A stretch of 64,000 bases of DNA from NCBI GenBank assembly GCA_964649675.1, contig CAZYPX010000001.1, forward strand, positions 10,470 to 74,469. The letters are read 5' to 3'. Under the pieces are notes generated by a model. It did no database searches, was not told the origin of the DNA, and saw only the letters and a list, made by a program, of their open reading frames with translations. Of the stretch, positions 3,052 to 45,319 are shown in pieces. Source of the DNA: an uncultured Rhodospirillaceae bacterium (GTDB lineage Bacteria > Pseudomonadota > Alphaproteobacteria > UBA9219). How positions within the stretch are numbered: the first letter of the stretch is position 1; each line of letters opens with the position of its first letter. Made by a program: the position numbers and the translations under genes.

Positions 3052-3205
3052 ATCAGCCTGTGTTTGTCCTCCAATCAAGGCGTATAGCAAAGAGATTCAG
3101 GTTGCTCTAGCGGAAGAGATCAAAGCTGCTCCTTCCGGCGCTGTATTTCCTCAATTTTTAGGTGATTATGCGCTGCTACGAAATCAAATTGGTCTATGCA
3201 AATAA
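2972..3205 (+). CDS. o-spanin (Rz1)-like lipoprotein, encoded out of frame overlapping the i-spanin gene
   Basis: GGAG lies 7 nt upstream of ATG 2972. There is a signal peptide plus a lipobox-like LLNAC, and the mature part is Cys- and Pro-containing (CVCPPIK). This is the classical overlapped Rz/Rz1 geometry. Confidence 0.4.
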   Translation: MRNYVQRFLPLVLALSLLNACGTGISRSACVCPPIKAYSKEIQVALAEEIKAAPSGAVFPQFLGDYALLRNQIGLCK

Positions 3206-6200
3206 TCCATTTGCGTTGGGTCTGTACTCGAACTTCACACGCAATCGTTTGGCACGTTCTTTAAAAGCAGCCTCTCCACCTTCTAGAATTTCACAAACTT
3301 TCCGTCGAATTTCAGGATTTTCCAACCCACCGCTGAAGTACCGAATTTTTGGAAGCTGATTTTGTTGATGCTTTCCACAAGAAGCAATGATTATCTGGTC
3401 TGCATCAGTATTAACAACAAGATTAGCATTATGAGTCACGATAATAATTTGACGACGCTTTCGCGCTGATTTAAACAGAGGAACGAGTTCATCGAAGATT
3501 GATTTTGGATCAAGGTTTTCTTCCGGTTGATCAATAATAAGAGGGCGGTCATCTTCTTTGTCTACCAGTAAATACAATGATAACAACACGATTCCGCGAG
3601 TACCTGGCGATAGCTGCTTTATATCGACCCCTTCATGTTGGATGCCATATTTTACCGTTATGTGGGCTGTCCCATATAGCCAATCCGCAACGTTGTTTGC
3701 CCAGGATCTAAAAGCTGGACGGTCACTTTTTTCAACTTGTGAATGTTCCAGAAGCCCCTGATCATATTTTTCACGGAATAAATTAAGAGCAGACACTATT
3801 TCATCAGAATTTCCTTTCTCCCATGCCACCTGAAGCTCGTTCTGAACCGCAGTTAAAAGTGCTCCCTTACCCTTAAATGGACCTGCTTTTCGCAAATCAA
3901 GAAGCGATTCTCCGCGCTCCGACCAAGATTTTATATCAGCCCGACGCTGCACAATAAAAGAAAGCTTACCAACGGTGCCTTCCTGAGCCTGAAGGTGCTT
4001 CATTAGCGGTTGGTAAAGTGCCTTTAATTGATTTTCCTCTTCTTGAATTGCTTCCAGTACAGCTCTGTACGCTTTTTTCCGTTCATCAATGATATCTTTA
4101 ATTCGTCCAGAAGCTTTTTCAGCGGCTTCAATGTCGCGTTGCAGCTTAGCTTTCTCGGCCTCATCCTTGGCTATTTTTTGACTTATGCGTGCGTATTTTT
4201 TTGCGTTTTCGTTATCAACGCCAATGAGCTGCTGCAACCTAGCAAGCTCTGCGCTTAACAATTCAAACGTTTGTTCATTCAAAGGTACTCCGGTAGGAAT
4301 TAGCGAGTCCACATGAGAGTTCTGAGCCGAAATCGCAGTTCCCGTAATTGATTTTACCAATAAATCAACTTTCTCGTTTTCACATTTGAGAATGGCATCG
4401 ACATCTCCCGCAAATTGAAAGTGGAATTTGTTCCATTGATCCTCATCGAGAAGAGCCGCAGCATGGGTTGTATGTAGTTTTCTAAATGTTTGCGGAAACA
4501 CAGAAGCCTTTATGTTCTTAATTTCTTCCTGTAAGTTTTTGAGAGCTAGTTGCCGTCTTTTCGCGGCTTCGAGTTTCGCACGTACCGAGTCAAGCGCTAA
4601 TGCAACTTCTCCATGCTTTGTTGCACGCTCTTCTTTGCCTTTCCCGACAAGCGACTGTCGATCTTTCTTATCGTTTTCTATGGCTCTTTCTTTTTCTCTC
4701 AATTGTTTCTTTAGTGCTGGAAGACTATCTATTTTTTCACGTTCTGAATTAAGCTCATCCGAAAGTGCCGATAAATGTTTTTCATGGTAGTCCCGAGAGG
4801 CCTTTGCTTGCGCTGAGCGTAAATCAAGTAACTCTCGAAAACTTCCTGCACCCATTCGATCTTCTAACTTATGAGCTTGAAAGATAACCCGTTCTATCTC
4901 TTCCATTAACTTATCTGTCGGCCCTTCTGCGGTACATAAATCTTCAACAAACTGCTGTGAAAGATACTGGACACGAGGAACATCTAGTAACTCTTCGATT
5001 TCAACAAATCGAAGGCCGTTGCTTGTAGACTCTCCCGCGCCCCATACCAGAGTAGCCGTTTCGTCGGTAAATAACTCATTCGCACGATGAATAAATGATC
5101 TCTCGTTCAACTGCGATAATGCCGAATAGCCACCGACGGCAACAAGATCCGCAAGCGCTGTTTTTCCAGAGCCGCGTGCGCCGATGACCGCTATTAAACC
5201 GGAATTAAGTTGTATGCATGAGGTTTCCAGCCAAGCTGCATCGCTTACGTGAACACTTCGAATAATCTGCGAGGGCGTTCCTCCTGTCGGGCAATTCTCA
5301 GCGATGCAAACGCGTCCATCTGGTTCTATGCACGCTTGCCTAAGTGATTCAAATGTCAAATCACCCTTAATCCATGAATATCTGTTTAAAGCGGGATTTG
5401 CGACAGCAGCTTGCTCATGAGCATCGCAGCCATGTAAACATGGCTTTCTTCCATCGTACATTTCTTCGAGTTGAACGGTTGATAGCCTTCCTTTCCCCAA
5501 CCAAAACTCTCTTTGTTTGGGGTTCGATGAAAATATGATGTGCGATACCCGTTCAATTTCGATTCTGGTTGCAGCAAAAGTAGCATCTTGCTGCAGTCCT
5601 GAGGTTCCATCCGAACCATTACCAGAAACCGCAACGAGAATATTTTGAAGTGCCCATTCGTTCTGCCTGAAAACACCTCTTAGTTGATCTAGGGAGATTT
5701 TAAATTGATTGGTTCCTGCTGAAAGCGCCTGCTTTTCATCCAAGGTTGCACCGCAGCACGCCCTTCCAAGCAGTATTAGATCCTCGCGTTCACATCTGTA
5801 GGTTTCTTTGCCGTATTCAAAGGAAAAGTTCTTTAAAAAACGTTTGATTTGATCGACATGATCAGGATCGTCAGGTGATACGAGAAAATGAGTGTTTATA
5901 GCTGTCCCGCGAGATGTTCCAACGATTAGCCGAAATTCAATGTTCGGAAAAATTAATCCGACATTTTTTAGACGTCCTGTTGCTTTATATTCCAACACTT
6001 TCTCGTAGTTCTTCAGGCTTAAGTAATCTGTATAGCCGAGCTAAAATAAAATGATCAAAAGAAGGAAACCAAATGGGATCCCCGCCTTCGCGGGGATGAC
6101 GAGTATGGGATTCATTTCAAAATATAAAACCGTCATCCCCGCGAAGGCGGGGATCCCATTTTTTGAATCATTTTATTCTGGATCAGCTATAATGCCAAGG

Positions 6201-6394
6201 GCACGAATTTGAGGATCAGACGATTCAATTTGAGAAAGAAAGGAATTCCACGGATCTTCTCCATTAAATTGATCGTTTAATATTGTTTCAGGCGTATGTA
6301 TGTGGGGATCCCAGCGATGCCAAACTGATCCTTCAGGATTTTTTGTAAAATCTCTCTTTGTATTTGGTTCCTCTGTTTTAGCGGCAATTTGCAT
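3194..6394 (-). pseudogene. PHP-domain fused to ABC/SMC-like coiled-coil ATPase (about 1000 aa), reading frame interrupted by a palindromic insertion
   Basis: The upstream 73-aa ORF (6394-6173) carries WDPHIHTPET (PHP motif I). The 934-aa ORF continues the PHP fold (NIEFRL, INTHFLV, CLHGCDAHE matching GSDAH-like motif IV). It then carries Walker A VIGARGSGKT and a coiled coil of about 400 aa. The ABC signature LSPGTRG, Walker B LIIDQPEENLD and H-loop VTHN follow. Both ORFs are in the same frame (coordinate mod 3 = 1) and are separated by the 6041-6176 element, which supplies TAA and TAG stops. Confidence 0.6.
6041..6176. mobile_element. MITE-like palindromic element (about 136 bp) inserted inside the PHP-ATPase gene
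   Basis: Perfect 28-nt inverted repeat AATGGGATCCCCGCCTTCGCGGGGATGAC / GTCATCCCCGCGAAGGCGGGGATCCCATT around a 33-nt core. It is flanked by outer inverted ends AAAATAAAATGAT / ATCATTTTATT that carry stop codons. Confidence 0.6.
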
Positions 6395-6493
6395 AACTAT
6401 CTCCCCACGATATTCTGTCGTTCCAGATTAAACTCGATAGTTCACGAGCATACTGTTAGGCAATAAAAGACCGACTCGTTTGATAAAGCCGAG

Positions 6494-9001
6494 TTAACCC
6501 GCTACGTTTCCGCGATATTCCACAACAGTCAGAACGGTATCGTATAAACCAACATCTTCAAGCTCGTGCTTGTTGATACCAGTGTATTCAAGGCTAGCAT
6601 CCTCATAGCGTTTAAATTTGTAGACAGCATCATTCATCAATGCGCTGTTGAAAACGCCAAGGCTGACCAGTAGCTCGAAGTCTTTGACGATCAATCCCGT
6701 AACTTTTTTAAACAGGCCGGGTTCAAGCTGAGTGACAACATCTCTTAAGGCTTTCTCGCGGTAATCCGTGAGATACATAAAAACGGGAATACGCGTGGCA
6801 AACTTGATAAGCTTTTCTTGAATTTGCTTGCGAAGGCTTTTGTATTCTCTTTCTTCTTCGCTTAACTGCTTCTTTTCTTTAGCCGTCAGTTCACGCTCAT
6901 TGGCTGCTTGTTTGGCCTTTTGGACAGCATCTGATTTGTTAATGATCGTTTCAATATCCTCATTGAGTGTGCGAAACCCTTCAATTCGCATTAATGCATC
7001 CATCGCGTCCTTATTTTTCATCAAGCGGTGCAGAGTGTTGTTGTCCACATTGACCAACAGAGCACTTTCCCAACGCCGTGCCAGCAGCGTGGCTGTCGTA
7101 CCACTCATTGCCATATCTAATACACCGGCGGCATTGATTTGCTTCATCGAACTACCGTCGTAAGCCAGTACGGGCAGGAAGTGTATAAACTCCTCAACCT
7201 TTTTCTCGGGGTTCGCTTCATCAATGTTCAAACGGCAGCTGTAATCTGCGATCTGACGAAGCGCACGATCGGGTGCAAAATCAAAAACGTAACACTCACG
7301 CTTGATGATTTCCTGCTTGTTCGGTGATTTGCTATCAGGGTTTTTGATGACCCACGGCGTCTGTACGCGGAACGCGGCCTGAAAATATGTCTCAGGACTT
7401 GAGCAATTTCTCAACATGAGAATACCAGTCCAAGGCTTAACCGAGACACCAGTGGTTAACTTACCGCAAGAAAGTGTAATGGTCTTTGAAATTAAAGGGT
7501 TGTCCATTGCATCTTCAACAGGTGGTAATGCCGCAACACCGAGACCTGCCTCAGAACCTGCAGCAACAATAATCTTATAGTCCTGGTAAAATTTGTTCTG
7601 CCGTTGCTTAAGCAAGTTTTTCATCGCATGGCACGATGAGACAGAAGGCAAAAACCAAAAAGTATGAGAAAGCACGTTAAGCAGTCGCGCGTCTGAAAAA
7701 GGCATGGGTGGTTTTTCTGCACCAAGCTTCAAGTTATCGACAGTTGTTTCCAAGAACGCACCACGTATCAAATCCAGCCATTTCTGGACATCGCTTTCAT
7801 ATTTAAACTTAGCTTTTGAGCCTTCACCGTTCGCTGAAAAAAAGATGTTCAAGTCGAACTGGTTATACTCCCCGCCCATGGCGATCTCACGAATAGAATC
7901 CGGCAACTGGTAGGTTAGCATGACCAAACGTGGCAAAGACTCATAAGGGTTGTTTTCGCCCTTCCATTTTTCCTTGGCGCGCTGCTCATCAGAATATGTC
8001 CAATTATAAATCTGTTCCTCGATGAACTCACCAGCAGCAATAGCGCGGAAAGGAGTGCCTGAGAGATAAAGGTATGCCGAAGTTGTAATCGGCATATTGC
8101 TCTCGTCAAAAAATTCCAAGCCTCTACCTTCGGCATCACGTATTTCTCGCTCGTCCTCGGCTTCAAAGAGATCTTTCGCGTTCTCGCGCCACGCGCCGTA
8201 ATGATATTCGTCAAAGGCTACGCAATCCCAATTTGTGGTGTGCACCCATTCATTTCTCGCCTTGATGCCACCAGCGGAATTTTTGCCCAAATAGTCTTGA
8301 AATGAGCCAAAGCAAACGATAGGCCTCTTCGGGTCAGCTTCCTCAAAAGAAAGACCGTTCCTGGAAATAAACTGCCAGCCTTTGAAATCGACGTGAGATT
8401 TAAGATCTTCCTCCCAGGCGCTCTGCACAGCGGGCTTAAAGGTCAAAACTAAAATGCGCTTCCATCCCATCTTTTTGGCAAGCTGATAGGTGGCGAATGT
8501 CTTGCCAAAACGCATTTTCGCGTTCCAAAGGAAGTGTGGCGTCTTCTTAGGATTTTCTTTCCTGAAACTTTTAAAGTAGGCAGCTGTTTTCTCTACAGCT
8601 TCCTGCTGTTCGGGTCGCATCCCAAAATCCAGCGTCCGGTTCTCCTCATTCTCAATCCCATCACGCACGGCGACGATTGACGCCTTCACGTCTTTCACGG
8701 AACACTTGAACCATTCGCCATCAGGGTTCTTGAAACCCTTCTTCTTCAAATGGCGATGAATATCGTGATCAGTGAAAGAGCTGCCGTCCTTGCGCATGGC
8801 AGATTCTTCAAGCACGATTTCGTACGGAAGTTTTCCGGGACGAAGCGTCGGGTATTGTTGTGCAACACGACTTTTAACATCCACGCTGGTAAAGCCAACT
8901 TTTAACAACCCGGCATATTGGGGGTTTGTATCACGGTAAGCATAGATTGTTGGCTTAGCCTCTGGCCTTGGCGGAAAGAAAACATCACTCATCCGTGACA
9001 T
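6494..9001 (-). CDS. SF2 helicase (ResIII/DEAH-like) with N-terminal T5orf172 (GIY-YIG-like) domain
   Basis: 835-aa ORF. N-terminus [22 protein letters not shown]…EWFKCS fits T5orf172. It is followed by Walker A-like RFGKTF and a DEYHYG box. The gene overlaps the upstream MTase gene by 17 nt. Confidence 0.6.
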
Positions 9002-10553
9002 CCCCTATCAAATCACTATCCATTGGACGAACCATTGATTCAATAAATGCGATGTCCTTCTTGTCCAAAGCATATTTCTTGTACAACTTCTCGTCCGTCC
9101 ACTCCTTGGAAAAATCCTGCATAGGCACGAAGGTATAGACCCTACGGGTAGTATCCTGAGATGGCTTGTGCAGGAGAATTAGTAGCCGTGTAAGGCGGCA
9201 TGATAGGTAGGATAACACGCTCTCAGCTTGTTTTTGGGATTCTAGCGGCCCAATACATAAATATGTTTCAGAAGAGATCGTACCCGGCTCACCAATAAAA
9301 GGGGTGCTTATGATCTTATGTGGGTAGGTATCTTTGTTGCCAGTCCCTGGAGCAGCTCGACCAGTGAAAACTTTCCATTTATCGATGTATTGGGTTCCGG
9401 ATGTAATCCTTTCTCTTGGGGTGTAGCCTACGCCCCCGTTCTGATAAACTGTCACATCATTGCTACGTTTGGCTGTTTTACCCTTGAATGTAGTCTCTAA
9501 ACCGAACGGCTTCCTAGAACTAACCAAACGATCAAAGCGCTTTGTTTCAGGCAGAGCGAGTGTTTGGGTTTGACCAGTCTCGACAGCGATGACTTTCTTA
9601 AGAATAGAAAGGCCTTCATTGAAACGAATAAAGACATCAGCTCCTTCTTCTCTAAGAGGCCGAACGGTTGTCGAAACCGGCCAATCCTTAAAGTGAGTGC
9701 TTACCTTACAAGGACCTGGATTGTCGCGGTCCCAAAGAAAGTAACAGACGCCTCCTTTGAGGCCGACACCGGGAAAAACATCGGAAGCACTTAGATAGTC
9801 ATCAATAGAACGCAATCGGTTGTCGGAAAGCATCCCGTCTCTGAATTCATCCAGTCCCTTGCCACCAGAAAACCATCTGGAAGGAATAATCATGCTCAAA
9901 TATCGCGGATTTAATTTTTTAGCTTGTTCAACAAATTTATCGTAAATGGGTGCAGCGCTAGTTCCGAAGCCAGAGTCACTCAACTGGTAGGGCGGGTTTC
10001 CTACAATGACGTCAAATCTCATGTTGAATATCCTTTCCGGCTCGTTGGTATGTATAAATTCATAGGCATGTGTTTCTAGTCCTTCTTCGCGCGAATAATT
10101 CTCTTGGCTTGCTCCACAGAACTCGCATTTTCCATTTTTCCAAGCATGTTCGGTGTGCACGTAGCGAATGTTTCCCGCCTCCCGCTTAAACGCATTTGTG
10201 ACAGAATAGTCTCCGTTAGCTTTTTTCGAACAGTACACCGAACGTCGCGATAAAAGGGATGTCATCTCAGTGATGGAAATCCCGTAAAGCTGTTTTCCGT
10301 AGATATGGTCAATGCGCTTTTGCAAATCTGGAATTTCCTTTTCAAGTCCTTTCAAAAGGCGCTTCGCTATTTCTCTCAGGAACACACCAGATTTGCACAC
10401 AGGGTCAAGAAAAGTCGCGTTTTTGTCCTGCCAAATCGTTTCAGGCAAAAGGTTAAGAACAAGATTTGCGACTAGGGGCGGCGTAAAAACCTCGTCGTTG
10501 CTCAAGTTGGCAAGACAGCTCAAAACATCCGGATTGTAGTTGATCTTAAGCAT
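8985..10553 (-). CDS. gamma-class N6-adenine DNA methyltransferase
   Basis: 522-aa ORF with motif [13 protein letters not shown], motif [13 protein letters not shown] and motif IV NPPY in the order X-I-IV, as in the Eco57I/TaqI type. Confidence 0.6.
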
Positions 10554-11202
10554 TGTCGCTCAACTTCAAAAAATGCATCAGCGGAAATTCTCTGACAGGC
10601 TTCGGGATGATTGCTGGTTCGTTTAAATCGGAAAAAAGAGTCATTTCGCCCATTGGCTGGTAATCCAGCAAATGAGCTAAAGAATAGTCCCGGCGCTTGA
10701 TCATGCTTCCATTGACCGCAGACCATTCAGCAAAAATGATGGGTTCTTGCTTGCCACAAACCGTTTTCATAGTCAGCGCATCGCCCCACAGTATGTTTTT
10801 GCTAAAAATGAATTTGACCGACTGGCGACAGGCCTCGTTGCATTCTTTGCTATAAAGAGACGTATACCGGTCATCAAAAAGATCGAAAAGTCTCTGACGA
10901 CATTGAAAGACGTTATCCTCCAGAATGTCTACGCCGTAGATTGAAGAGACTGCTAAAACAGCGTATCTTTCGTATTCGAGTTTGCTTTTCTTATAGCGGC
11001 TCTCTACGATGGCCAACTTGCGCCGCAAAACCTCGATGAGAAAATTTCCCGTTCCGCAGGCAGGTTCCAAGAAGCGGGATTCGATCCTATCGGTTTCCTG
11101 CCTAACGAGATTAAGCATCGCATTTACTTCCCTTTCAGGAGTAAACACCTCTCCGTGATCATTCACACGTTGTTTTGATTTGATTTGCAAAGCGCTAAAC
11201 AT
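10546..11202 (-). CDS. MTase-like protein with motifs X and I only (truncated or degenerate N6A-MTase module)
   Basis: [14 protein letters not shown] and [12 protein letters not shown] are present but no NPPY/F. The likely start is ATG at 11202, which overlaps the Xis stop by 8 nt (ATGTTTAG). The ORF track extends to 11358 in overlap with xis. Confidence 0.45.
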
Positions 11203-11419
11203 TTCTTCCCTTCTTTTTGCTGCTGCGCGCCCAGGCGTCAATTTCATCCAATCGAAAGCGCCACGTGCCGCCGACTTTGAAGGCAGGAATTTCGCCTCGT
11301 GTAAGAAGGGTATAGATTGAGCGTTCCGTGACCTTGAGGTAAGCGGCGACTTCCTCAACGGTAAAGACCTCTGGCAAGCGTATCTTTTGCGACTCTGTCA
11401 TAGGGCGTAAAATATTCAA
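11195..11419 (-). CDS. AlpA/Xis-family (MerR-like HTH) excisionase/regulator
   Basis: 74-aa ORF: …FTVEEVAAYLKVTERSIYTLLTRGEIPAFKVGGTWRFRLDEIDAWA, a typical phage Xis/AlpA HTH_17. It is the first gene of the minus-strand operon. Confidence 0.55.
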   Translation of the reverse strand: MNILRPMTESQKIRLPEVFTVEEVAAYLKVTERSIYTLLTRGEIPAFKVGGTWRFRLDEIDAWARSSKKKGRNV

Positions 11420-11534: not shown

Positions 11535-11993
11535 TTAATCCACCTGTTGCGCCGTCAGGAACATCGCTTTTTCGAGAGCGGCGAAAAACTGCTGGTATGG
11601 CTGCGGATCCTCGATGGCTTGAATGTTGTACTGGGCGTTGGCCCGGACGATGAGTTGGGTGGTGCCTCTGTCTCGGACGCTGACGGTCATGCGCATGGCA
11701 TAGCCGTTAAGCTTAGTGCCGCTAACGGTTCCAAGCGTGGCGTCGGCCTTGTCGATCACGAAGCCTAAATCCTGCAGGGTGGCTATGACTGTGCGCAGCG
11801 TTTTTTGCTTGTCCGTCGTATCGAAGGCACGGCTTTGCATGCTGCGTAAGGCGACTTGGCTCTCGGATGTGGCCAGGGCTTGATCGCGGCTGTTCGTCTG
11901 ACAGGCAGCCAGTGAAAAGGCCAGCAAGGAAAGGGCAAGCATTTTGGATAATTTGGAGGACATCGATTGTTCCTTTGACGAGTTAGATTTCAT
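11535..11993 (-). CDS. lipoprotein (paralogue 1)
   Basis: Signal peptide plus lipobox LAAC. Conserved block LQDLGFVIDKADATLGTV is shared with the next gene. Confidence 0.45.
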   Translation of the reverse strand: MKSNSSKEQSMSSKLSKMLALSLLAFSLAACQTNSRDQALATSESQVALRSMQSRAFDTTDKQKTLRTVIATLQDLGFVIDKADATLGTVSGTKLNGYAMRMTVSVRDRGTTQLIVRANAQYNIQAIEDPQPYQQFFAALEKAMFLTAQQVD

Positions 11994-12576
11994 GTGCGGT
12001 TAGGAAGACGGACTGGGAAAGTTTGTCGAAGAATTCCTGATAAAGCTTCGGATCGTCCAAGGGTTCGGTTGTGGAAACCTGCCCACGGTTGTTCCAAACC
12101 ACGCGCTGGAAGGTAACGCGAGCGGCTGTCTCATTGTCACCTGTTTGACGGGTAATAAGGCTCACGCGAATTTTTTGGTTTTGATCGATGGGCATGTTCA
12201 CGCCGAACATGACGGCCATAAAGACGGCTCCCGCGACCTGTCCAGCCTCTGTGGCATCTCGATCCTTCGAGCCAACAACGACGCCAAGATCCGTTTCGCT
12301 TTCCTCAAGATTGAAACCAAGATCCTGCAAGACTTGTGCGCCTGCCGTCAGGAGCTTTTTTTCATCCTTGGTTTCAAAGCGGCGGGTTTGTGACTGTCTC
12401 TGTTGAAGGTTTTCCTGGCTTAGTTCCAAAGCTTCCTTTGGTACGGTCTGTGCGCAAGCGGTCATAATGAGCAAAAGAGAAAGGCAAAAAGCAGCTTTAC
12501 GCATCACATCCCCCTTAGAAGCTGGAGGAACGATAAGCATAGTCGCGGACGCGGCCTGCTTCGTCGAATTTAACAA
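11983..12576 (-). CDS. lipoprotein (paralogue 2)
   Basis: Lipobox IMTAC. Block LQDLGFNLEESETDLGVV is paralogous to 11535-11993. The two genes are in a tandem, overlapping arrangement. Confidence 0.45.
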   Translation of the reverse strand: MLNSTKQAASATMLIVPPASKGDVMRKAAFCLSLLLIMTACAQTVPKEALELSQENLQQRQSQTRRFETKDEKKLLTAGAQVLQDLGFNLEESETDLGVVVGSKDRDATEAGQVAGAVFMAVMFGVNMPIDQNQKIRVSLITRQTGDNETAARVTFQRVVWNNRGQVSTTEPLDDPKLYQEFFDKLSQSVFLTAHEI

Positions 12577-12964
12577 TGATGGTCAAAGTCCGCTGCGTGG
12601 TACTGGATGCGCCGGCACCGCTGCTCATACCGCCGCCAAGACCGCCCAGCAACCCAGCGCCTCCCGTTGCCCCAGCACCGCCAAAAATCAGGCCAAGGCC
12701 GCCGGAGGACGTTGAATAAACCTTCTCGGTGGCCACTTTGTCATAAACCCAGCTTTCGCGTCGCTTTTCGTCAGTTGTGACCATGTTGGGCGAGCCAAGG
12801 ACTTCAACCACCTCTGCCGAGGTCATGCCGTTGCGTATTTCACGCTGTGCGGCAGCGACTGTAAGCCTCTCCTTGTCTTGATTGGACACAGCCGCGCGGT
12901 GATCCTGCGCCGACGCACAGGCAACCAGAGGCAAAAATAAGCCAATTGTCAGAATTTTACGCAT
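12515..12964 (-). CDS. BamE(SmpA/OmlA)-like lipoprotein with C-terminal glycine-zipper
   Basis: Likely start at M19 (MRKILTIGLFLPLVAC, lipobox). It has a GMTSAEVVEVLGSPN BamE-like motif and a Gly-rich GGAGATGGAGLLGGLGGGMSSGAG stretch. Confidence 0.45.
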   Translation of the reverse strand: MRKILTIGLFLPLVACASAQDHRAAVSNQDKERLTVAAAQREIRNGMTSAEVVEVLGSPNMVTTDEKRRESWVYDKVATEKVYSTSSGGLGLIFGGAGATGGAGLLGGLGGGMSSGAGASSTTQRTLTIIVKFDEAGRVRDYAYRSSSF

Positions 12965-13093
12965 ACAAATCTCCATAGCTGCGGGAAGCAAGCACGTGAT
13001 AGCACGGTGATGTGCCAATTCCGGTCACATTGCCCCTTGGTCGCATGAGGTTTTCTGTGGCAAGGTGAGGCAAATCATTAACGAGCTAAAACC

Positions 13094-14083
13094 ATGCGTT
13101 TTGAAAAAGCGGAAGACTTGCTTAACCTTGCCTTTGCCATGCAGTCATCTGCGGATGGTGTTGCACTGGCAGAAATAGAAGAGATGTTCGAGGTCTCGCG
13201 CCGAACAGCTATGCGAATGCGCGATGCAGTCGTTCGCGTCTATCCGCAGGCCGAGGAAACCACGGACGAGAACAGGATCAAGCGCTGGCGCATTCCGAAT
13301 GCGGTGAACGGCAGACATCTCTGCCTAACCCCCGACGAACTCGCGACCCTTGATATGGCTGCCAAGGCGTTCAACGGGAAAGGCCTTGCACTACAGTCCA
13401 AGGCGCTGCGTTCGTTATGCGGAAAAATCAAAAGCTTTCAACGATGTGACATTTCACGCCGTGTCGAACCCGATCTGGAGGCGCTGATCGAAGCCGAAGG
13501 GCTTGCCGCACGTCCTGGCCCGAAGCCCAAAATCCAAGTTGAACACCTTCATTCTTTGCGCGAAGCCATTAAAGCCTGCCGCATCGTAGAGCTTCATTAT
13601 CGTGGCAAAGGCAAGAAGGACGCCGAGGTCAAACGCATTTGCCCTTACGGCTTTCTTTACGGGCACCGCCACTATCTTGTTGGCGGCGCTGCTCAGAAGG
13701 ATCGCGCGGGATCCTATTATCTCTTTTGCCTCTCCCAGATTGATGGCGTAACCATCACAAAGGAAAGCTTCCGGCGGGATCCGTCATTCAACCTGCAATC
13801 CTATGCTGAACAAGCTTTTGGCGTATGGATGGAAAAGCCGCAGGAAATTGTCTGGAAGTTCTCACCGCGTGCTGCTGTTGCTGCACGGGATTTTGTGTTC
13901 CACCCCAAGCAGACGATTGAGGAAAAAAAGGACGGTTCTCTGATCGTGCGCTTCAAGGCAGGAGGCATGCTTGAGATGGCATGGCATCTGTACATGTGGG
14001 GTGATCAGGTTGAAGTGATTAAGCCACATGAACTGAAGAAAATGTTAAAGAGCAGACCGTCAAAGTGGGAAGGTTTGCCCTAA
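13094..14083 (+). CDS. WYL-domain transcriptional regulator (HTH-WYL-WCX; BrxR/CapW-like)
   Basis: 329-aa ORF with an N-terminal HTH and a WYL core …RHYLVGGAAQKDRAGSYYLFCLSQIDGVTI. Its stop overlaps the start of the downstream nuclease gene (TAATG). Confidence 0.65.
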   Translation: MRFEKAEDLLNLAFAMQSSADGVALAEIEEMFEVSRRTAMRMRDAVVRVYPQAEETTDENRIKRWRIPNAVNGRHLCLTPDELATLDMAAKAFNGKGLALQSKALRSLCGKIKSFQRCDISRRVEPDLEALIEAEGLAARPGPKPKIQVEHLHSLREAIKACRIVELHYRGKGKKDAEVKRICPYGFLYGHRHYLVGGAAQKDRAGSYYLFCLSQIDGVTITKESFRRDPSFNLQSYAEQAFGVWMEKPQEIVWKFSPRAAVAARDFVFHPKQTIEEKKDGSLIVRFKAGGMLEMAWHLYMWGDQVEVIKPHELKKMLKSRPSKWEGLP

Positions 14084-15390
14084 TGCTCAATCCATTCGAT
14101 CAATACGATGGCGATGAAAATAGGCTAACGCATGCGTTGGCGATCACCCTTGAACGTAGCTCCGCCTTTCTAGAAGCATTTGTTAATCAATGTGGTGCGA
14201 AGCGTGCACTCGGCAAAAAAGTCAGGGTGGAGATACAAGTTGTCATGCACTCTGCTGATGCTTCTGAGGAAACAGCCATCCCAGATCTCTTACTTGTTGA
14301 TGAGGAAGGACGGCGAGGTCTCATTTTTGAGGTTAAGGTAGGCTCTCCATTGAAATTAGAGCAACTAAAGCGCCATGAATCTCGCGCTCGTGACTATGGA
14401 ATAGATGTCGCAGGTAAATACGCGATCACAGGCAGACAAATTGATGCATTGAAGATTGAACAATGGAAGCAAACTTCTATTCAGAAAGACTGGCACCACA
14501 TCGCGTGGACTGCAATTTATGAGTCAGCCAACAAACTAAAAGCTAAATGCAGCTGGTCTGCTGATCTCGCTGATTACCTTGGAATTGTAGCGGCTCAGAG
14601 AGGAGATGACGATATGGATGGTAGGGTAAAATTGACAACATTTACCGGCATTCCCTTTAAAGCACCGCATAGAAAAAAAAATCAAGAAGGCATGTATGAC
14701 TACGATCCAAACCAAGCAAAGCGACATCTATTGGCTTTAGTCGACTGCCTCGAAAGTGATCAAAGATTATTGACCGACCTTGGTTTTCTTAAAGGACAGA
14801 AACCACGGCGTCGCGGCAGTGTCGAGGTATCGAACGCTGTATGGGATTATCTCTCACCGTTGGGGCAAGAGGATCACCACATTAGCGGCTATCATTTTAC
14901 CATCGGTATCGCCACAGATCATGCAAGTGCGATGCTGACGGTTCCGAATGCAAGTGACGAATTTAGAAAATTAAGGCGATTTGTGAAAGATAAAGGCGAA
15001 GCTGCATTTGAAAAGCTTATACATAGTTTTCTCCAGAGAATTAGAGATTTAAACCTCGACAGGTTTGGTTTTCAGCCATGCATTGTCATGAAACAGCGCC
15101 GCTATAGAACCATGCGAGAGGTTTATGCAGTCGATGGTTCTTTGACATTCGATTTAAGAACGCTTGTTGGTCGTCCTGCAGAGGGGAAAGCGCCCGCCAT
15201 ACATAGGCAGCCCGAATGGACATCGTTCTGTTATCAACTTCTGAAAGATAAAAATTCAAATATCCAGTTTCAGATCGGTCTTCATTTTATGTACGGTTTT
15301 ACAGAGGAATTAAATCGGGCAGAAGCGGCTGAATATTTTAAAAATTCGCTGAGAGCTACAACAGTCTTTTTGCAGGAGTTAAAGTCTTAA
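14083..15390 (+). CDS. PD-(D/E)xK nuclease-family protein
   Basis: Carries the motif AIPDLLLVDEEGRRGLIFEVKVGS (PD…E-V-K). It is translationally coupled to the WYL regulator. An A9 homopolymer lies at 14673-14681 inside the ORF. Confidence 0.5.
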   Translation: MLNPFDQYDGDENRLTHALAITLERSSAFLEAFVNQCGAKRALGKKVRVEIQVVMHSADASEETAIPDLLLVDEEGRRGLIFEVKVGSPLKLEQLKRHESRARDYGIDVAGKYAITGRQIDALKIEQWKQTSIQKDWHHIAWTAIYESANKLKAKCSWSADLADYLGIVAAQRGDDDMDGRVKLTTFTGIPFKAPHRKKNQEGMYDYDPNQAKRHLLALVDCLESDQRLLTDLGFLKGQKPRRRGSVEVSNAVWDYLSPLGQEDHHISGYHFTIGIATDHASAMLTVPNASDEFRKLRRFVKDKGEAAFEKLIHSFLQRIRDLNLDRFGFQPCIVMKQRRYRTMREVYAVDGSLTFDLRTLVGRPAEGKAPAIHRQPEWTSFCYQLLKDKNSNIQFQIGLHFMYGFTEELNRAEAAEYFKNSLRATTVFLQELKS

Positions 15391-18300
15391 GCCACTGCCT
15401 CTTTTTCCATTCCATTCACGTACGCAGAACGATCCGCATAAGCCTTCGCCCAACAGAGCGTGTTAACGAGGCGCATCTGATCGATTGTATTGCAGGATAT
15501 CTCCAACAACCGTGGATTGGCATAAATCACGGCCAAGCATCGGGCGCGGCTGATGGCGACGTTTAGCCGGTTTCTGCTGAATAAGAATTCAATGTTGCGA
15601 GGCAATTCCTCTGCCGACGAGGTCACCATCGAAATCAGCACAACAGGCGCTTCCTGCCCTTGAAACCGGTCAACAGTGCCAACGCGCGCGCCTTCCGGCA
15701 GCGTTTTTTCCAAAAGGTCAACTTGCATATTGTAGGGCGTGACGACCAGAATATCTTCAATGCCTAGTTCGTGCTTGTCGCCAACTTCATCCACCCACGT
15801 CATACCTAACAGGCTTTCATAGGTGTGTTTGAGACGCTCGGCTTCTTCCTCGCTCTTTTGCGAACATCCTTCATGCTCGACTTCAACAAACCGCAAGCCA
15901 GCGGATATGATGGCATCCGGATCCCGATTGCCATCAGCTACAATATGCCGTCTCGCGTTATCCAGATCTGGTTGCAAACGACCATCGTACACAGCGTCTG
16001 AAATAAAGTGGCAAATCGCCGGATGCATGCGCCGCGTTGTAGCCAGGAATATCCCCTGTTCAGGCGGCACAGTCGCCGCTTCGCCAAGAAGATACTCCAG
16101 CGCAGAAAGCCCTGAGCTGCCCGGATGAATGCCTTGAATAGGCTGGGACAACTGCATCTGATCGCCAACAAGAACAATGTTCCGCGCGGACGTCCCCATA
16201 GCGACGATATTGGCAATGCTGACTTGACCAGCCTCGTCGATGAACAGGTAATCCAAAACCTGATCGAATGCCGGACGCGAAAAGAGCCAAGCTGTTCCTG
16301 CGACCAGATTATAGGCTTCGCTTTCAGCCTCTTCATTTTTCTCCGTGTTTTGGATGAAGCCCTTGCTATCTATCGCATGATCCTCGCCAGAGCATTTTTT
16401 GACCCCACGAAAATGTATGTTCTGCTCAACGGCGCGCTTTTCCACGGCGGCAAGCAAGTTATTGATTGCTTTATGAGAGTTTGAGGCAACGCCCACCCGT
16501 TTACCCTGTTTTAGCAGCTCCACAATTGCATGAGAGGATGTGTACGTCTTGCCCGTGCCCGGCGGCCCTTGGATCAGGATATGGCTGTTATCCAAACGCG
16601 CTACGGCGCTCACTGCTGCTAACGTAGGATCATCTCCCGGTTTGATAATAGGGTCGCCGTGTTGGCAACCATTGATGTGTGGCAACTCTTTACGCAAGAT
16701 GCTCGTTACGGCTGGGTATTGTCCTTGATTGCCATTCGCGACGGCCTCGGCATAGCGGAGAATGGCACCGCGCAAGACTTTGTCCTCTAACGGCCCTGGC
16801 GGAATGAGCGACAGACAATCAGGCAGATCTGTCTGTTTGTTGCTAATCTTGAGAGCAATCCGTCGGGCTTTATCGTCCAGACCTACGATGGTGCCGAAAC
16901 GCTTGCCCGTTAATGAGCTGATCGGGTCAGTTCCAACACCCATTTTGAAATCTTGTGCTGGAAACTCGAACTCATAGACGAGTGATCTGTCGCGGGGACT
17001 CAATTTGTAAGGCGTAATGGATTTGTCGAGTGTGCACTTGCCGATGCACTCAGCGTCTTCGACCATTTCCTCATCCGACATATCCAAGCGTGTAAACAGC
17101 GCCCACCAACCCGGCTTTGACTCACGGCGATGAAACTCAAGCAAGTGACCGACAAGCTCACGCCACGGCTTCTCGGTTTCAGGAACGCCTTCCTGCAGTT
17201 TTGCGATGAGTTGGGCTGTACGCGCCTCAGCCTCTTGTCGTGCGGCGTCCTTCTCCGGATTTTCGGGTTCGTCAGAATTAGGGGAAAACCAATCGACATC
17301 TGAGGGCCGCAACCTCAACAACCAATCACGGCACATCAAGGTCGAGCGGCAGTCGAATTCGTTGTAATCGGAGATTTCTCTCAGAATGGCATCATCGCCC
17401 AAAGCCCGCCATTTCTCGTACATGACAATGCTGTCACCGGCTGTCTTGACTTCACCCGCGCGTTTCTCGGCATAGAATGTTTCCATATTCTTAATGGAAT
17501 AACGCGGCTCGGAAACGCGAACGGCCTCGCGGACGACTTTGTAAAGATCGACCAGCTTCCGGTTGCGCAGAAGGAAATCAACTTCGGCCTCGCGCGTGCC
17601 GTGGTACATGGCCAAATTCTTTAGAGCCGTCTCCTCATACGCGGCGTAGTGGTAGATGTAGGCATCTGGATAGGCCGCAAGCCGAGCCATGATGAAATCC
17701 ATGACAGCCTCAAAAGCCTTTTTCTCCTCCTGGCGATCATGCGCCCAGAAAGCCTTAAACTCTGGTTCTCGCTTTTCATTTAGTAGGACGAAGCCGAACA
17801 GATATTCAAGACGCGGATTTCCGTAGTGGGGATCGCCTTCCATATCGAAGAAGAGATCGCCATCGTTAGGCCTGGGAAGACGAGCAAAACCTTTATTCGC
17901 CTGAAGAGGCAAGATTTCGCATTTGTCCTGACCATCGTCTCTCTTGGCAATTTGTAAGCGGGCTTGTTCGCGCAGGCGCGTTAAGGCATCCGGTTGCAAC
18001 TTGGGAATGGCTTGATCAACTGAAAGATTGGCTAGCTCCCGCATGCTGTTGATACCGGCACGGCGTAATTTCTTGATCTGGCTGCCCTGTATATTGGCCA
18101 CCATACGTAGATGTTCGCTCCGTTCCCATTCCTCTTCGCAACGAAATGCCCAACGGCACTTGCTGCACCGCGAACAAGGCTCGCCGGTGCGAGGCATATA
18201 TTTCTGTTTAATGAAATCTAGAAAACGCTGCCCTGCCAACCCTTGATAGTACTGGAAATCAGAAACGCGCAGTGTGACCTTGCTCTTATTGCCGAGCACG

Positions 18301-18806
18301 ACATGCAGATCACGCGGGTAAAGCCCTTGTTCTTCGGCCAGAAGATCCGAATACACATAAAGCTGGACGACATATTCCGGCTTTGCGTGCAAGGCGAGCT
18401 TCGTATCTGCAACTTCATAACTAAAATTGCCAAGTTTCGATGGCTTTTCCGTACGCAAGAGAAAATCGGCAAAGCCGTTCCATGGATCCCTGAGAAAGGC
18501 AGCCTGATAGATTACATCGACTCCGGATGCCAAAGCTTCCTTCGTCAGGGCAACCCTGCGGGTTGTCGACGTATCCTGCGGGATTTCAGCAATAGAACAA
18601 CCCAACTGCCGCAAATGCTCCAAATAGTCGTATTCATGCTGCAGCCCTTTTTGTTTCAGAAGTTCAGAGCTTTCATCGGTTTCCTTGGGCAAATCGGCTG
18701 GCGAGAAAACCTGTTGCACATCGAATAGCGTGGCACACGGACATTCCAGATACGTCACCAGATCGGAGGGAGAAAGCAACAGCCTGTTCTGTTCATCGCG
18801 GCGCAT
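15387..18806 (-). CDS. Dna2/Nhi-like nuclease-helicase (N-terminal RecB/Cas4-like Fe-S nuclease plus C-terminal SF1 helicase)
   Basis: 1139-aa ORF. N-terminus has LVTYLECPCATLFD and a Cys cluster CSRCSKCRWAFRC. C-terminus has Walker A ILIQGPPGTGKTYT, the DEAGQVS box and SF1B motifs. It is convergent with the nuclease gene, with a 4-nt overlap. Confidence 0.6.
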   Translation of the reverse strand: MRRDEQNRLLLSPSDLVTYLECPCATLFDVQQVFSPADLPKETDESSELLKQKGLQHEYDYLEHLRQLGCSIAEIPQDTSTTRRVALTKEALASGVDVIYQAAFLRDPWNGFADFLLRTEKPSKLGNFSYEVADTKLALHAKPEYVVQLYVYSDLLAEEQGLYPRDLHVVLGNKSKVTLRVSDFQYYQGLAGQRFLDFIKQKYMPRTGEPCSRCSKCRWAFRCEEEWERSEHLRMVANIQGSQIKKLRRAGINSMRELANLSVDQAIPKLQPDALTRLREQARLQIAKRDDGQDKCEILPLQANKGFARLPRPNDGDLFFDMEGDPHYGNPRLEYLFGFVLLNEKREPEFKAFWAHDRQEEKKAFEAVMDFIMARLAAYPDAYIYHYAAYEETALKNLAMYHGTREAEVDFLLRNRKLVDLYKVVREAVRVSEPRYSIKNMETFYAEKRAGEVKTAGDSIVMYEKWRALGDDAILREISDYNEFDCRSTLMCRDWLLRLRPSDVDWFSPNSDEPENPEKDAARQEAEARTAQLIAKLQEGVPETEKPWRELVGHLLEFHRRESKPGWWALFTRLDMSDEEMVEDAECIGKCTLDKSITPYKLSPRDRSLVYEFEFPAQDFKMGVGTDPISSLTGKRFGTIVGLDDKARRIALKISNKQTDLPDCLSLIPPGPLEDKVLRGAILRYAEAVANGNQGQYPAVTSILRKELPHINGCQHGDPIIKPGDDPTLAAVSAVARLDNSHILIQGPPGTGKTYTSSHAIVELLKQGKRVGVASNSHKAINNLLAAVEKRAVEQNIHFRGVKKCSGEDHAIDSKGFIQNTEKNEEAESEAYNLVAGTAWLFSRPAFDQVLDYLFIDEAGQVSIANIVAMGTSARNIVLVGDQMQLSQPIQGIHPGSSGLSALEYLLGEAATVPPEQGIFLATTRRMHPAICHFISDAVYDGRLQPDLDNARRHIVADGNRDPDAIISAGLRFVEVEHEGCSQKSEEEAERLKHTYESLLGMTWVDEVGDKHELGIEDILVVTPYNMQVDLLEKTLPEGARVGTVDRFQGQEAPVVLISMVTSSAEELPRNIEFLFSRNRLNVAISRARCLAVIYANPRLLEISCNTIDQMRLVNTLCWAKAYADRSAYVNGMEKEAVA

Positions 18807-18920
18807 TCTAAATTATCCTTATTGGAAGCGTTTAATAAGATACGACAACATGCTACCAGACAAGGGGCGTTGTAAATAATGCACACGCCAGTTTTGGTCA
18901 CATAGGATTTACGTTCGTGT

Positions 18921-41649: not shown

Positions 41650-41737
41650 GAGCCCATTCTGGCAGGAACAAAGGGGTGGGGCTAGGGGTTACTGTCTTGT
41701 ATGGACACGACGTTAATTCGTGTTTTAGTGTCGTGAC

Positions 41738-42316
41738 ATGGGTACGATTTTCGCCGAAACCGACCGCCTTCGCTTGCGCGCTCTTGAAAAACGCGACCTG
41801 CCGCGCTTTCCCGAATTCCTCAATGACTGGGATGTCGTGAAATGGTTGGCGCGCGTTCCCTATCCTTACAGCATGGATGACGCCATGTGGTGGTTCGATC
41901 ATATCCAAGAAGCCTATCGCAAGAACCAATCGGAATTTTTTGTCATCGCCAGCAAAGAAGATGTGCTTATGGGCGCGCTTGGCTTTCATGCGCTTACCCT
42001 GTCCGAGCCAAAAGAGGGCGAACTTGAAATCGGCTATTGGTTGGCTAAACCTTATTGGGGAAGCGGCTTGATGAGTGAAGCGGTGACCGCTGCATTGCCG
42101 CTCGTGTTTGCGCGCCCCGAAATTACAAAACTTACGTCATTCACCGATCCCGACAATCAAGCCTCGCAAAACGTGTTGCGTAAATCAGGCTTGCGCTATC
42201 TCGGCATTCATCCCTGCACAGCAAAAGGCCGTCTTCGCGGCAGCGATACCGCCACGCTTTGGGAAATGACGCGGGAGGATTACCTCACCAATTTCCCCAC
42301 AACCTGCGCGGTGTAG
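41738..42316 (+). CDS. GNAT-family N-acetyltransferase (RimJ/RimL-like)
   Basis: 192-aa ORF with a GNAT core (…IGYWLAKPYWGSGLMSEAV…). Confidence 0.55.
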   Translation: MGTIFAETDRLRLRALEKRDLPRFPEFLNDWDVVKWLARVPYPYSMDDAMWWFDHIQEAYRKNQSEFFVIASKEDVLMGALGFHALTLSEPKEGELEIGYWLAKPYWGSGLMSEAVTAALPLVFARPEITKLTSFTDPDNQASQNVLRKSGLRYLGIHPCTAKGRLRGSDTATLWEMTREDYLTNFPTTCAV

Positions 42317-43314
42317 TCGACCATCGGGATGATGCGGGCGTAGTTCATGCGCACGGGACCGATGACGCCGATGGCGCCGATCACGTGTTCCTGACGGTTT
42401 TTATAAGGCGCGACGATCACGCTGCAGCCCGCATTGGCGAACAGAGCGTTTTCCGCACCGATGAAAATCTGCACACCTTCCGCGCCTTGCGTGGCTTGGA
42501 GCAAACGAGCCATAGCTTCCTCGGTTTCCAGTGCATCGAACAACTGACGCACGCGTTCGACATCGGCCAAGGCGTTCACATCTTCGAGCAAGCGCGCCTG
42601 ACCGCGAATGAGAAGCTGCCCCGCGCCTTGCTGGCCCGACCAAACGGCAAGGCCCGCCTCGATCAGCTTGCGCGTGAGTTCATCAATCTCGGCGCGGCGT
42701 TGGTTCATATCGTTTTCGATGTCGCGCTGAACTTCGGCTAGATTGCGTCCCGCAAGCTGGCGGTTCAGATAATTCGCCGCCATCGTGAGCGTGCCCGCAT
42801 CAAGGCCGAGCGGCGCTTCGATCACGCGGTTTTCGACAAGCCCGTCTTCAGTCACAAGAATAACGAGAACGCGGCCTGGCGAAAGATTCACAAACTCTAT
42901 CTGACGCAAAGGTCGATCCATCTTCGGCGCAAGCACAAGGCCCGCGCATGATGACAAGCCCGCCAGCGCGTTCGTGGCATTCGCCAATACATCGGCGAGA
43001 TTTTTGCCTTGCGCGGCGCATTGAGCCTCGATGTTTTTCTTTTCATCCGCCGCAAGGTCGCCGACTTCCAGCAAGCCATCGACGAAAAAGCGCAGGCCCC
43101 TATCGGTAGGCACGCGGCCCGCCGAAATGTGCGGCGCGTGGAGCAGGCCATGGCCTTCCAACTCGGCCATCACGTGGCGGATGCTAGCGGGCGAGAGCGT
43201 CATGCCCAAGCGTTCGGCAACCGCGCGCGAGCCGACTGGCTCGCCCGTCGACATGTAGGCGTCGACGATTTGTTTCAAAACGTCGCGCGAACGTTGGTTG
43301 AGGGTGGAGAACAT
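42280..43314 (-). CDS. hrcA: heat-inducible transcription repressor HrcA
   Basis: N-terminus LNQRSRDVLKQIVDAYMSTGEPVGSRAVAERLGMTLSPASIRHVMAELE is typical HrcA; 344 aa. Confidence 0.85.
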   Translation of the reverse strand: MFSTLNQRSRDVLKQIVDAYMSTGEPVGSRAVAERLGMTLSPASIRHVMAELEGHGLLHAPHISAGRVPTDRGLRFFVDGLLEVGDLAADEKKNIEAQCAAQGKNLADVLANATNALAGLSSCAGLVLAPKMDRPLRQIEFVNLSPGRVLVILVTEDGLVENRVIEAPLGLDAGTLTMAANYLNRQLAGRNLAEVQRDIENDMNQRRAEIDELTRKLIEAGLAVWSGQQGAGQLLIRGQARLLEDVNALADVERVRQLFDALETEEAMARLLQATQGAEGVQIFIGAENALFANAGCSVIVAPYKNRQEHVIGAIGVIGPVRMNYARIIPMVDYTAQVVGKLVR

Positions 43315-43504
43315 GGGGGGATGTTAGGATAGAAAGGCTTGTTTGGTCAAAAGGGCCTTTCCTTTGCAATCATCCCCGTTATTCTCCTTCGCCGAGGCAA
43401 AGGAGGACATGTGCCGTAAAAACCCTGCGAAGCTTTCGTATAGTAGGGAAACGTGGGTTCAGTGGCGCCGGGTTACTGTTCTTGCGGGAAAGCCATCAAT
43501 CGCT

Positions 43505-45319
<1,815 letters not shown>

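Follow-up and report, generated by a model that had tools for sequence, protein, structure and literature searches.

Organization of the locus

The DNA analysed here is a stretch of 64,000 nucleotides (nt) from an uncultured Rhodospirillaceae bacterium (assembly GCA_964649675.1, contig CAZYPX010000001.1, positions 10,470 to 74,469 of the forward strand; hereafter the window), and the element in question is a compact unit of three genes for a transcription factor, a nuclease-like protein and a large nuclease-exonuclease-helicase. The first gene (13094..14083, plus strand) encodes a DriD-family transcription factor of 329 amino acids (aa) with a winged helix-turn-helix (wHTH), WYL and WCX architecture, the latter two domains being recognized by Pfam. 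It is followed on the same strand by a gene for a 435-aa, two-domain protein without family annotation (14083..15390, counted from its ATG), referred to below as the cargo. The third gene (15387..18806, minus strand) encodes a 1139-aa, Dna2-like nuclease-exonuclease-helicase of the TM0106 family, with matches to TIGR03491, RNase_H_2 and AAA_11/AAA_12. The stop codon of the regulator, TAA (14081-14083), and the start codon of the cargo, ATG (14083-14085), have one base in common, in the context ccCTAATGctc. The cargo start is placed at this ATG and not at an upstream GTG (14065), in keeping with the N-termini of its homologues (MLNPF or MRNxF). The cargo and helicase genes are convergent and overlap by 4 nt at CTTAAG (15387-15390), and the helicase gene is separated by a 114-bp spacer from argH, which precedes it. 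An earlier, sequence-only reading of this DNA had given the same three open reading frames (ORFs) with the same positions and strands, the coupling of regulator and cargo through TAATG and the ending of the large gene 4 nt inside the nuclease gene, and all of these can be read directly in the sequence.

The computational evidence assembled below favours, at a probability of about 0.55, one DriD-type regulon with the regulator and the Dna2-like enzyme as its core and the cargo gene placed in the regulator operon, most likely serving as an inducible defence.

A transcription factor of the DriD family

The regulator matches the Pfam models WYL (E 1.1e-6) and WCX (E 1.1e-13), and a phmmer search of PDB sequences at E <= 0.01 returned five sequences only (chains of 8TP8/8TPK, 9PFQ, 9CU3, 7TZV and 7U02), the best at E 2e-58 over residues 1-319. 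BrxR and CapW structures are also deposited in the PDB, and no BrxR or CapW chain was present among these matches. Four of the matched entries (9PFQ, 9CU3, 7TZV and 7U02) we take to be DriD. Entries 8TP8 and 8TPK are the DriD protein (CCNA_01151) of Caulobacter crescentus (PMC10853764), an activator in the DNA-damage response that is itself activated by single-stranded DNA (ssDNA) (PMC9186387, PMC10853764). The ssDNA binds to a WYL/WCX pocket, after which the protein binds a palindromic box with the consensus ATACGAC(N7)GTCGTAT and activates didA, recA, recJ, bapE and dnaG; it also binds its own promoter (PMC9186387; PMC10853764).

The window protein shares with DriD the wHTH-WYL-WCX architecture, a similar length (329 versus 327 aa) and 36% identity across 319 aligned positions. 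In the recognition helix, R36, R37, T38, R41 and R43 are kept, including both base-reading residues of DriD (Arg37 and Arg41), whereas Glu40 is replaced by Met. Glu40 of DriD touches box position C1 (PMC10853764). The homologues listed with an RRTAMRMR helix are all associated with TGNC-N7-GNCA boxes bearing T and A at box positions 1 and 15 instead of C and G, which fits the loss of the glutamate that contacts the outer C.

The sequence-only reading had typed the regulator as BrxR/CapW-like, a label that is not borne out: the only PDB chains matched are those of DriD, at full length and E 2e-58, a DriD-type box lies in its promoter, and its matches in PADLOC are to generic CRISPR-associated WYL models. 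The likeness that could suggest the earlier label is real insofar as BrxR and CapW have the same wHTH-WYL-WCX layout and their genes also stand directly upstream of nuclease-type genes in a defence-rich island. CapW is also described as sensing ssDNA (PMC11662680), as DriD does. The two differ in that BrxR and CapW are repressors whereas DriD activates, and in that the recurrent partner of the window regulator is one specific helicase-nuclease family. By sequence, then, the regulator is a full-length DriD-family homologue and not demonstrably a BrxR/CapW protein; an ssDNA signal and an activating direction of control at this locus would follow by analogy with DriD.

Predicted operators upstream of the regulator and helicase genes

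The first predicted DriD-type operator, TGTGCCAATTCCGGTCACA, occupies 13011..13029, and its core, TGCC-N7-GTCA, reads TGCC-AATTCCG-GTCA at 13013-13027. It fits the CGXC(X)7GXCG motif described for driD promoters (PMC10853764). DriD and the window regulator each have in their own promoter a GxC-N7-GxC palindrome whose centre is AT-rich, although that of the window lies 65-83 nt upstream of the start codon compared to only about 10-17 nt in DriD. The same box is found at about -82 upstream of the regulator in the related loci L089, L090 and L092. The second predicted operator, TGTGACCAAAACTGGCGTG on the minus strand, with the core TGAC-N7-GGCG, occupies 18884..18902 in the 114-bp spacer, 78-96 nt upstream of the helicase ATG. 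Sites related to it precede the helicase gene in the close relatives L088, L089 and L090, and in other genomes with a DriD-type gene adjoining the helicase gene the spacer between them holds a palindrome resembling GTGACA-N5-TGTCAC.

All operator matrices were built from other genomes only and were used to scan 127,964 positions of the 64-kb window. One comprised 10 sites of distant genomes, another those 10 together with two sites from L089 and L090, and a third five sites from L088-L090 only. With the 10-site matrix, the top match of the window is 18884-18902 in the helicase-upstream spacer, where about 0.001 such scores are expected, and with the 12-site matrix the regulator box at 13011-13029 ranks first with a score of 15.2. 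The 5-site matrix scores the regulator box at 22.5 and the helicase box at 17.8, compared to 12.3 for the third match and a maximum of 14.2 +/- 1.6 in shuffled sequence. Two plasmid loci outside all training sets also have boxes in their regulator-helicase spacers. The third matrix match (48567-48585) lies inside an ORF for a PilT-like protein and was treated as a chance occurrence.

These results bear on the simplest explanation of the locus, namely that the three genes are merely neighbours and that the box upstream of the helicase gene arose by chance. In shuffled 64-kb sequences the maximum of the distant matrix attains the observed value 43% of the time, so that this score is by itself unremarkable genome-wide, and most members of each of the three families occur without the others. 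The box nevertheless falls in a single pre-specified spacer of 114 bp, a second, independent matrix picks the same two sites well apart from all others, each of the three close relatives has a related site before its helicase gene, and the adjacency of regulator and helicase recurs across classes and on plasmids. Chance adjacency is therefore considered very unlikely, and the regulatory link from the regulator through its operators to the helicase gene is well supported computationally.

Since a consensus scan found no sigma-70 promoter near either box, we infer the positions of the promoters. An element common to both regions, GCCCCTTG, follows the regulator box at a distance of 3 nt and the helicase box at one of 17 nt (13029-13050 and 18855-18884); it may be a -35 region, though the consensus scan gave no match there. 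In L088-L090 (about 6795-6980) the helicase gene is preceded by a small ORF with a hydrophobic end, 45 aa long in L089 and 52 aa in L090 and visible as a frame in L088, and the DriD-type site of these loci lies upstream of it. This ORF is absent from the window.

Similar boxes occur further afield. On a plasmid of Rhizobium sp. Pop5 (L145), a near-perfect DriD-type palindrome, TGACAGTTTCTGACA (9300-9314), precedes by 49 nt a multiubiquitin/ThiF/DUF6527 operon situated just past the helicase gene, and the WYL regulator of this plasmid may also control that ubiquitin-like operon. In a metagenome-assembled genome of the Ignavibacteria (L026), a DriD-type box, TGTCAAATTGTGGCA (score 13.9), lies 84 nt upstream of a helicase gene with no WYL gene detected within 10 kb, and this box may reflect control in trans.

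The TM0106-family nuclease-exonuclease-helicase

The large protein matches TIGR03491, the 'TM0106 family RecB-like putative nuclease', with 278.2 bits (cut-off 97.45) over residues 14-496 and model positions 4-462 of 462. Three catalytic modules can be assigned, with motif conservation judged across 13 homologues. An N-terminal Cas4/RecB-type 'iron-staple' PD-(D/E)xK nuclease domain (about residues 14-260; 18027..18767, minus strand), also weakly matched by the PADLOC models DruK and Cas4, presents invariant D114, D134-T-K136 and Q148..Y152, together with the invariant cysteines C22 and C214-x2-C217-x5-C223, a four-Cys 1 + CX2CX5C arrangement, and additionally C211. It is followed by an RNase-H-fold, DEDDy-type exonuclease domain (residues 318-496; 17319..17855, minus strand; PF13482 RNase_H_2, E 1.4e-25) with invariant D321-x-E323, D420 and Y481-x3-D485, a third catalytic module that the sequence-only reading had missed. 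The C-terminal region forms an Upf1/Dna2-like helicase core of superfamily 1B (SF1B; residues 730-1100; 15507..16619, minus strand; AAA_11, AAA_12 and AAA_30), in which the motifs GPPGxGKT (747-754, Walker A), DEAGQ (857-861), GDQMQL (881-886), RRMHP (925-929), VGTVDxFQGQ (1042-1051) and LNVAISRAR (1081-1089) are all invariant. The earlier assignment of a Cas4/RecB-like nuclease with a four-Cys cluster joined to an Upf1-like helicase thus stands, with every helicase motif present on inspection.

Profile searches of the PDB match the helicase to IGHMBP2 (3e-25), Upf1 (2.5e-21) and Dna2 (3e-18). A Foldseek search with the AlphaFold2 (AF2) model of the whole protein (mean predicted local distance difference test score, pLDDT, 71.7) places Dna2 on top (5EAX and 5EAN; E about 3e-22 over about 1,070 columns), followed by IGHMBP2 and Upf1. 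Because Dna2 is the best fold match and the profile search is concordant, 'Dna2-like', as the protein had been called from its sequence, is a fair description. A resemblance to the staphylococcal immunity factor Nhi had also been proposed; Nhi is a single polypeptide combining a nuclease with an SF1 helicase. This resemblance does not extend far, as the PADLOC Nhi model (PDLC02372) covers only the 34 residues around Walker A (740-773; E 0.056, 10 bits), and the better PADLOC matches of the protein, MkoA, MkoC and DpdJ, arise through the helicase core only. The UvrD-Cas4 fusions of a Cas4 phylogenomics paper were considered as a match and set aside, their architecture being different.

The family has more than 5,000 homologues across many phyla, and the literature search found no relevant work on TM0106, or on PF13482 in defence. 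It has an annotation but has not been studied, and the nearest analogues that have are Dna2 and the Geobacillus protein Bad, an enzyme with 5'-3' helicase and ssDNA endonuclease activity (PMC7430649). As predicted here, the large protein has in common with both an N-terminal Fe-S (iron-sulphur) 'iron-staple' RecB-type nuclease and a C-terminal Upf1-like SF1B helicase, the likeness to Bad being judged from its published description; Bad is also sporadic in bacteria and adjoins restriction-modification-type genes (PMC7430649), as does the helicase family. Unlike either, the large protein bears the additional DEDDy exonuclease between nuclease and helicase, and its sequence identity with Dna2 is only 12-14%. 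By analogy with these enzymes, it would translocate 5'-3' and act as an ssDNA endonuclease.

A recurrent pair with an exchangeable middle gene

The linkage of the three genes was surveyed at 80 genome loci of the helicase. In about 16 of these the regulator and helicase genes adjoin, as they also do on plasmids; a full-length DriD-type gene lies directly divergent from the helicase gene in 13, and a WYL regulator is found within 10 kb in about 25. The divergent pairing recurs on plasmids of Sphingobium and Rhizobium. No cargo homologue was found at any of the 80 loci. Of the co-occurrence of all three genes that the sequence-only reading had suggested examining, the association of regulator and helicase is thus recurrent, and that of the cargo is not.

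The three closest helicase relatives (88, 70 and 66% identity) retain the layout of regulator, cargo and convergent helicase, but with other genes in the middle: a Sel1/MliC-like gene together with one for a 334-aa protein in one, a DUF4238 gene in another, and genes for a 232-aa protein and a small lipoprotein in the remaining one. The four related loci, including that of the window, therefore hold four different cargo inserts, and the unit is retained while the helicase-side flank differs among all four. Regulator and helicase are a conserved, probably co-regulated core, the gene between them is a swappable cargo, and the unit is not an obligate three-protein machine.

These observations also bear on the two possibilities originally offered, a single three-gene system or two adjacent single-gene systems, neither of which describes a recurrent pair with a replaceable nuclease. 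In the latter case, a BrxR/CapW-like repressor with its PD-(D/E)xK effector would stand beside a self-contained Nhi-like nuclease-helicase, an arrangement to which the overlap of the regulator stop with the nuclease start, the gating of defence genes by WYL regulators (PMC9122601, PMC11662680) and the existence of the cargo family as a stand-alone gene would all be congenial. This explanation is unlikely, however, considering that the regulator matches DriD only, that the same type of operator precedes the helicase gene, that the regulator recurs beside the helicase elsewhere without the nuclease, and that the Nhi model matches no further than Walker A.

In two Rhodobacterales loci (L040; L062, 8187-8858), a DriD-type gene is followed by one for a 223-aa protein with an RNQIMH motif (HEPN-like Rx4H) that was recognized by neither Pfam nor PADLOC; in L062, McrB and McrC homologues come after it (4268-8226).

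The cargo protein

The cargo protein comprises an N-terminal restriction-endonuclease-like PD-(D/E)xK domain (about residues 1-150; 14083..14532, plus strand) and a putatively YktB/DUF1054-like C-terminal domain (about residues 200-435; 14680..15387, plus strand), in an AF2 model with a pLDDT of 87.7 and a predicted template-modelling score (pTM) of 0.85. Residues P67-D68, E83-x-K85 and Q94/R97/H98 are invariant in 25 homologues (26-73% identity), so that the PD-(D/E)xK call made from the sequence holds, and this conserved D...(D/E)xK triad is presented on a restriction-endonuclease-like alpha/beta core, which places the protein in the PD-(D/E)xK group. The N-terminal domain shares its fold and D...ExK triad with R.BspD6I, the FokI cleavage domain, Shedu SduA and Cap4. 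Unlike these relatives and YktB/DUF1054, the cargo falls by sequence into none of the families of Pfam or PADLOC, DUF4263, NERD and DUF1054 included: it matched nothing in Pfam, NCBIfam, PADLOC, the PDB sequences, the phage collection or the plasmid collection, and the earlier suggestion of a Shedu (DUF4263) or NERD protein finds no match in the Pfam or PADLOC models. Pfam and PADLOC searches likewise gave no sequence match to DUF1054, and no functional literature on DUF1054/YktB was found.

The family is rare, with 1,528 members at E <= 1e-3 and 455 at E <= 1e-30 in a profile search of 1.84 billion representatives. Its homologues, including those at 73% and 59% identity, sit elsewhere without the regulator or the helicase, neighboured by integrase/resolvase, HNH/AAA_13, AAA_15/DUF3226, SLFN/DUF429/TIR-ThsB or Mrr/GIY-YIG/YprA-like genes; one is found in ordinary, non-defence surroundings. 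In composition the cargo gene (GC content 0.44; 0.39 at third codon positions, GC3) stands apart from its neighbours (GC 0.52-0.53; GC3 0.57 in the regulator and 0.56 in the helicase). It is a recently acquired, compositionally foreign gene that belongs to an undescribed family. In L004 (7486-9266) and L005 (4729-6458), a gene for a PF01035 (MGMT/ATL-type) DNA-binding protein ends within that of a cargo homologue of 59% identity; this would be a different partner on the upstream side and hints at a link to alkylated or modified DNA.

Defence or repair

The helicase is found on 74 plasmids, 26 of them conjugative, and the company it keeps is diverse. Its neighbours on Sphingobium pSF1 are a divergent WYL gene, HEPN and DUF3883 genes and an SbcCD-like operon. 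On a Rhizobium plasmid, one side has a dGTPase gene with a divergent WYL gene, and the other a multiubiquitin/ThiF/DUF6527 operon with rmuC. McrB and McrC homologues each lie within 5 kb of the helicase gene in 9 loci, 7 of them downstream and co-directional. The immediate neighbours at the 80 loci represent 110 different Pfam families; those seen more than once besides WYL include RmuC, integrases and transposases, and the restriction, AAA_13 and PDC-type candidates mostly appear once each. Over genomes and plasmids together, SbcCD-like, HEPN, multiubiquitin/E1 and restriction-modification genes are also among the neighbours. Such surroundings mark an accessory gene of variable, defence-rich islands, which is no proof of a defence role.

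The same regulatory architecture could instead serve the repair of the cell's own DNA; the DriD-type damage response would then induce a Dna2/AddAB-like enzyme for end resection, together with an accessory endonuclease of repair. DriD itself responds to double-strand breaks by activating recA, recJ, dnaG and bapE (PMC9186387), the helicase or the regulator shares an operon with SbcCD-like genes in pSF1 and L035, the 59%-identical cargo homologue is start/stop-coupled to the MGMT/ATL-type protein, and regulator and helicase have a host-like GC3. Such a housekeeping function is less readily reconciled with a helicase family that is patchy across phyla, without conserved synteny with housekeeping genes and present on those 74 plasmids, whose neighbours are mostly restriction, McrBC, dGTPase, ubiquitin-like, HEPN and integrase genes, or with a cargo family that occurs in TIR/Thoeris-like and Mrr/YprA-like islands. 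We regard the repair explanation as possible but doubtful. Inducible defence against invading DNA is, we think, the most likely physiological role, because variable, mobile and defence-rich regions are where the helicase gene and the cargo family are mostly found; defence and repair were weighed at roughly two to one.

A plausible course of events can be proposed for such a defence regulon. The ssDNA arising from DNA damage, or from the replication of a phage or plasmid, would bind the WYL/WCX pocket of the regulator, the dimer of which would then engage both boxes and switch on both promoters. The 1139-aa enzyme would load onto ssDNA or single-strand/double-strand junctions, translocate 5'->3' in the manner of Dna2 and Bad, and degrade DNA through two activities, the Fe-S Cas4-type nuclease and the DEDDy 3'-5' exonuclease. 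The co-induced cargo would contribute a cut of the restriction-endonuclease type, with the YktB-like C-terminal domain directing it. The unit thus appears to be a damage- or phage-inducible DNA-degrading unit with one known part and two uncharacterised ones.

Several observations weigh against a DriD-type defence regulon. The ssDNA pocket of DriD is only partly kept in the window regulator: Y168 and Y192 are retained, Y240W, W206Y and R178K are substitutions, and several arginines are lost (R176E, R204G, R207Y and R288L), with an alignment gap near this region, so that the ligand could differ from ssDNA. The known targets of DriD are repair genes, which speaks for the repair explanation. With respect to the operators, the matrices are small, the sites were partly spotted by eye beforehand, and the distant matrix gives low scores to the helicase-upstream sites of L089 (8-9) and L090 (about 7). 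Most helicase loci are also without a DriD box, the boxes occurring for the most part where a DriD-type gene is adjacent, and the operator link is for this reason specific to some lineages; the notion of the helicase as a general DriD target was rejected on the same grounds.

The association of regulator and helicase is, furthermore, mainly one-way. Of 52 metagenome loci of DriD homologues only 2 have the helicase nearby and 50 do not, and the idea that DriD genes usually have a cargo or helicase neighbour was rejected. Most of these homologues are monocistronic, few having a co-directional downstream gene as the window regulator does. Finally, the cargos of the relatives matched nothing in PADLOC and only DUF4238, Sel1 and MliC-like models in Pfam, and those of two relatives include Sel1/MliC-like lipoproteins, which are not defence-like; the proposal that the slot is strictly a site for 'defence cassettes' was accordingly dropped.

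Neighbouring genes and composition

Three small lipoprotein-like genes, one of them BamE-like, adjoin the regulator (window 11535-13018) and are syntenic in the relative L090 (12794-14235), which suggests that the part of the unit on the regulator side belongs to the resident chromosome. Directly upstream of the unit lies a low-GC (0.43-0.46), defence-type island (3194-11419, minus strand). It encodes a 934-aa AAA_21/SMC_N ATPase with a partial match to the PADLOC Ppl model, an 835-aa T5orf172 and ResIII protein and a 522-aa Eco57I-type methylase that jointly span the PADLOC type IIG restriction endonuclease-methyltransferase model, and a second, 270-aa methylase together with an HTH_17 gene. 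Elsewhere in the window, the segment from 39000 to 45000 has a GC content of 0.57-0.61 compared to the window mean of 0.51 and may be another compositionally distinct segment.

Significance

WYL regulators of defence are known as repressors, typified by BrxR and CapW, and DriD is known only as a chromosomal activator in the response to DNA damage; nothing linking DriD-type regulators to the TM0106 helicase family was found in the literature searched. A bolder extension of these results, which we put forward only tentatively, is that the DriD-type regulator and the TM0106 triple enzyme constitute a widespread, mobile and undescribed anti-phage or anti-plasmid module that is switched on by an activator, in contrast to systems repressed by BrxR or CapW, and that provides in some lineages a docking site bringing further effector genes under one and the same damage signal, and that the 435-aa PD-(D/E)xK-YktB-like protein represents a new single-gene defence family.

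The unit of the window exemplifies how cargo is exchanged between two anchor genes that are themselves conserved, and it draws attention to a two-domain nuclease family, so far without annotation, as a candidate for a gene that acts alone in defence or repair. A DriD-type regulator carried on plasmids with a Dna2-like nuclease-helicase under a shared operator would, if true, join the fields of DNA damage and defence, and would provide ssDNA as a testable regulatory input for the TM0106 family, with its more than 5,000 matches in many phyla.

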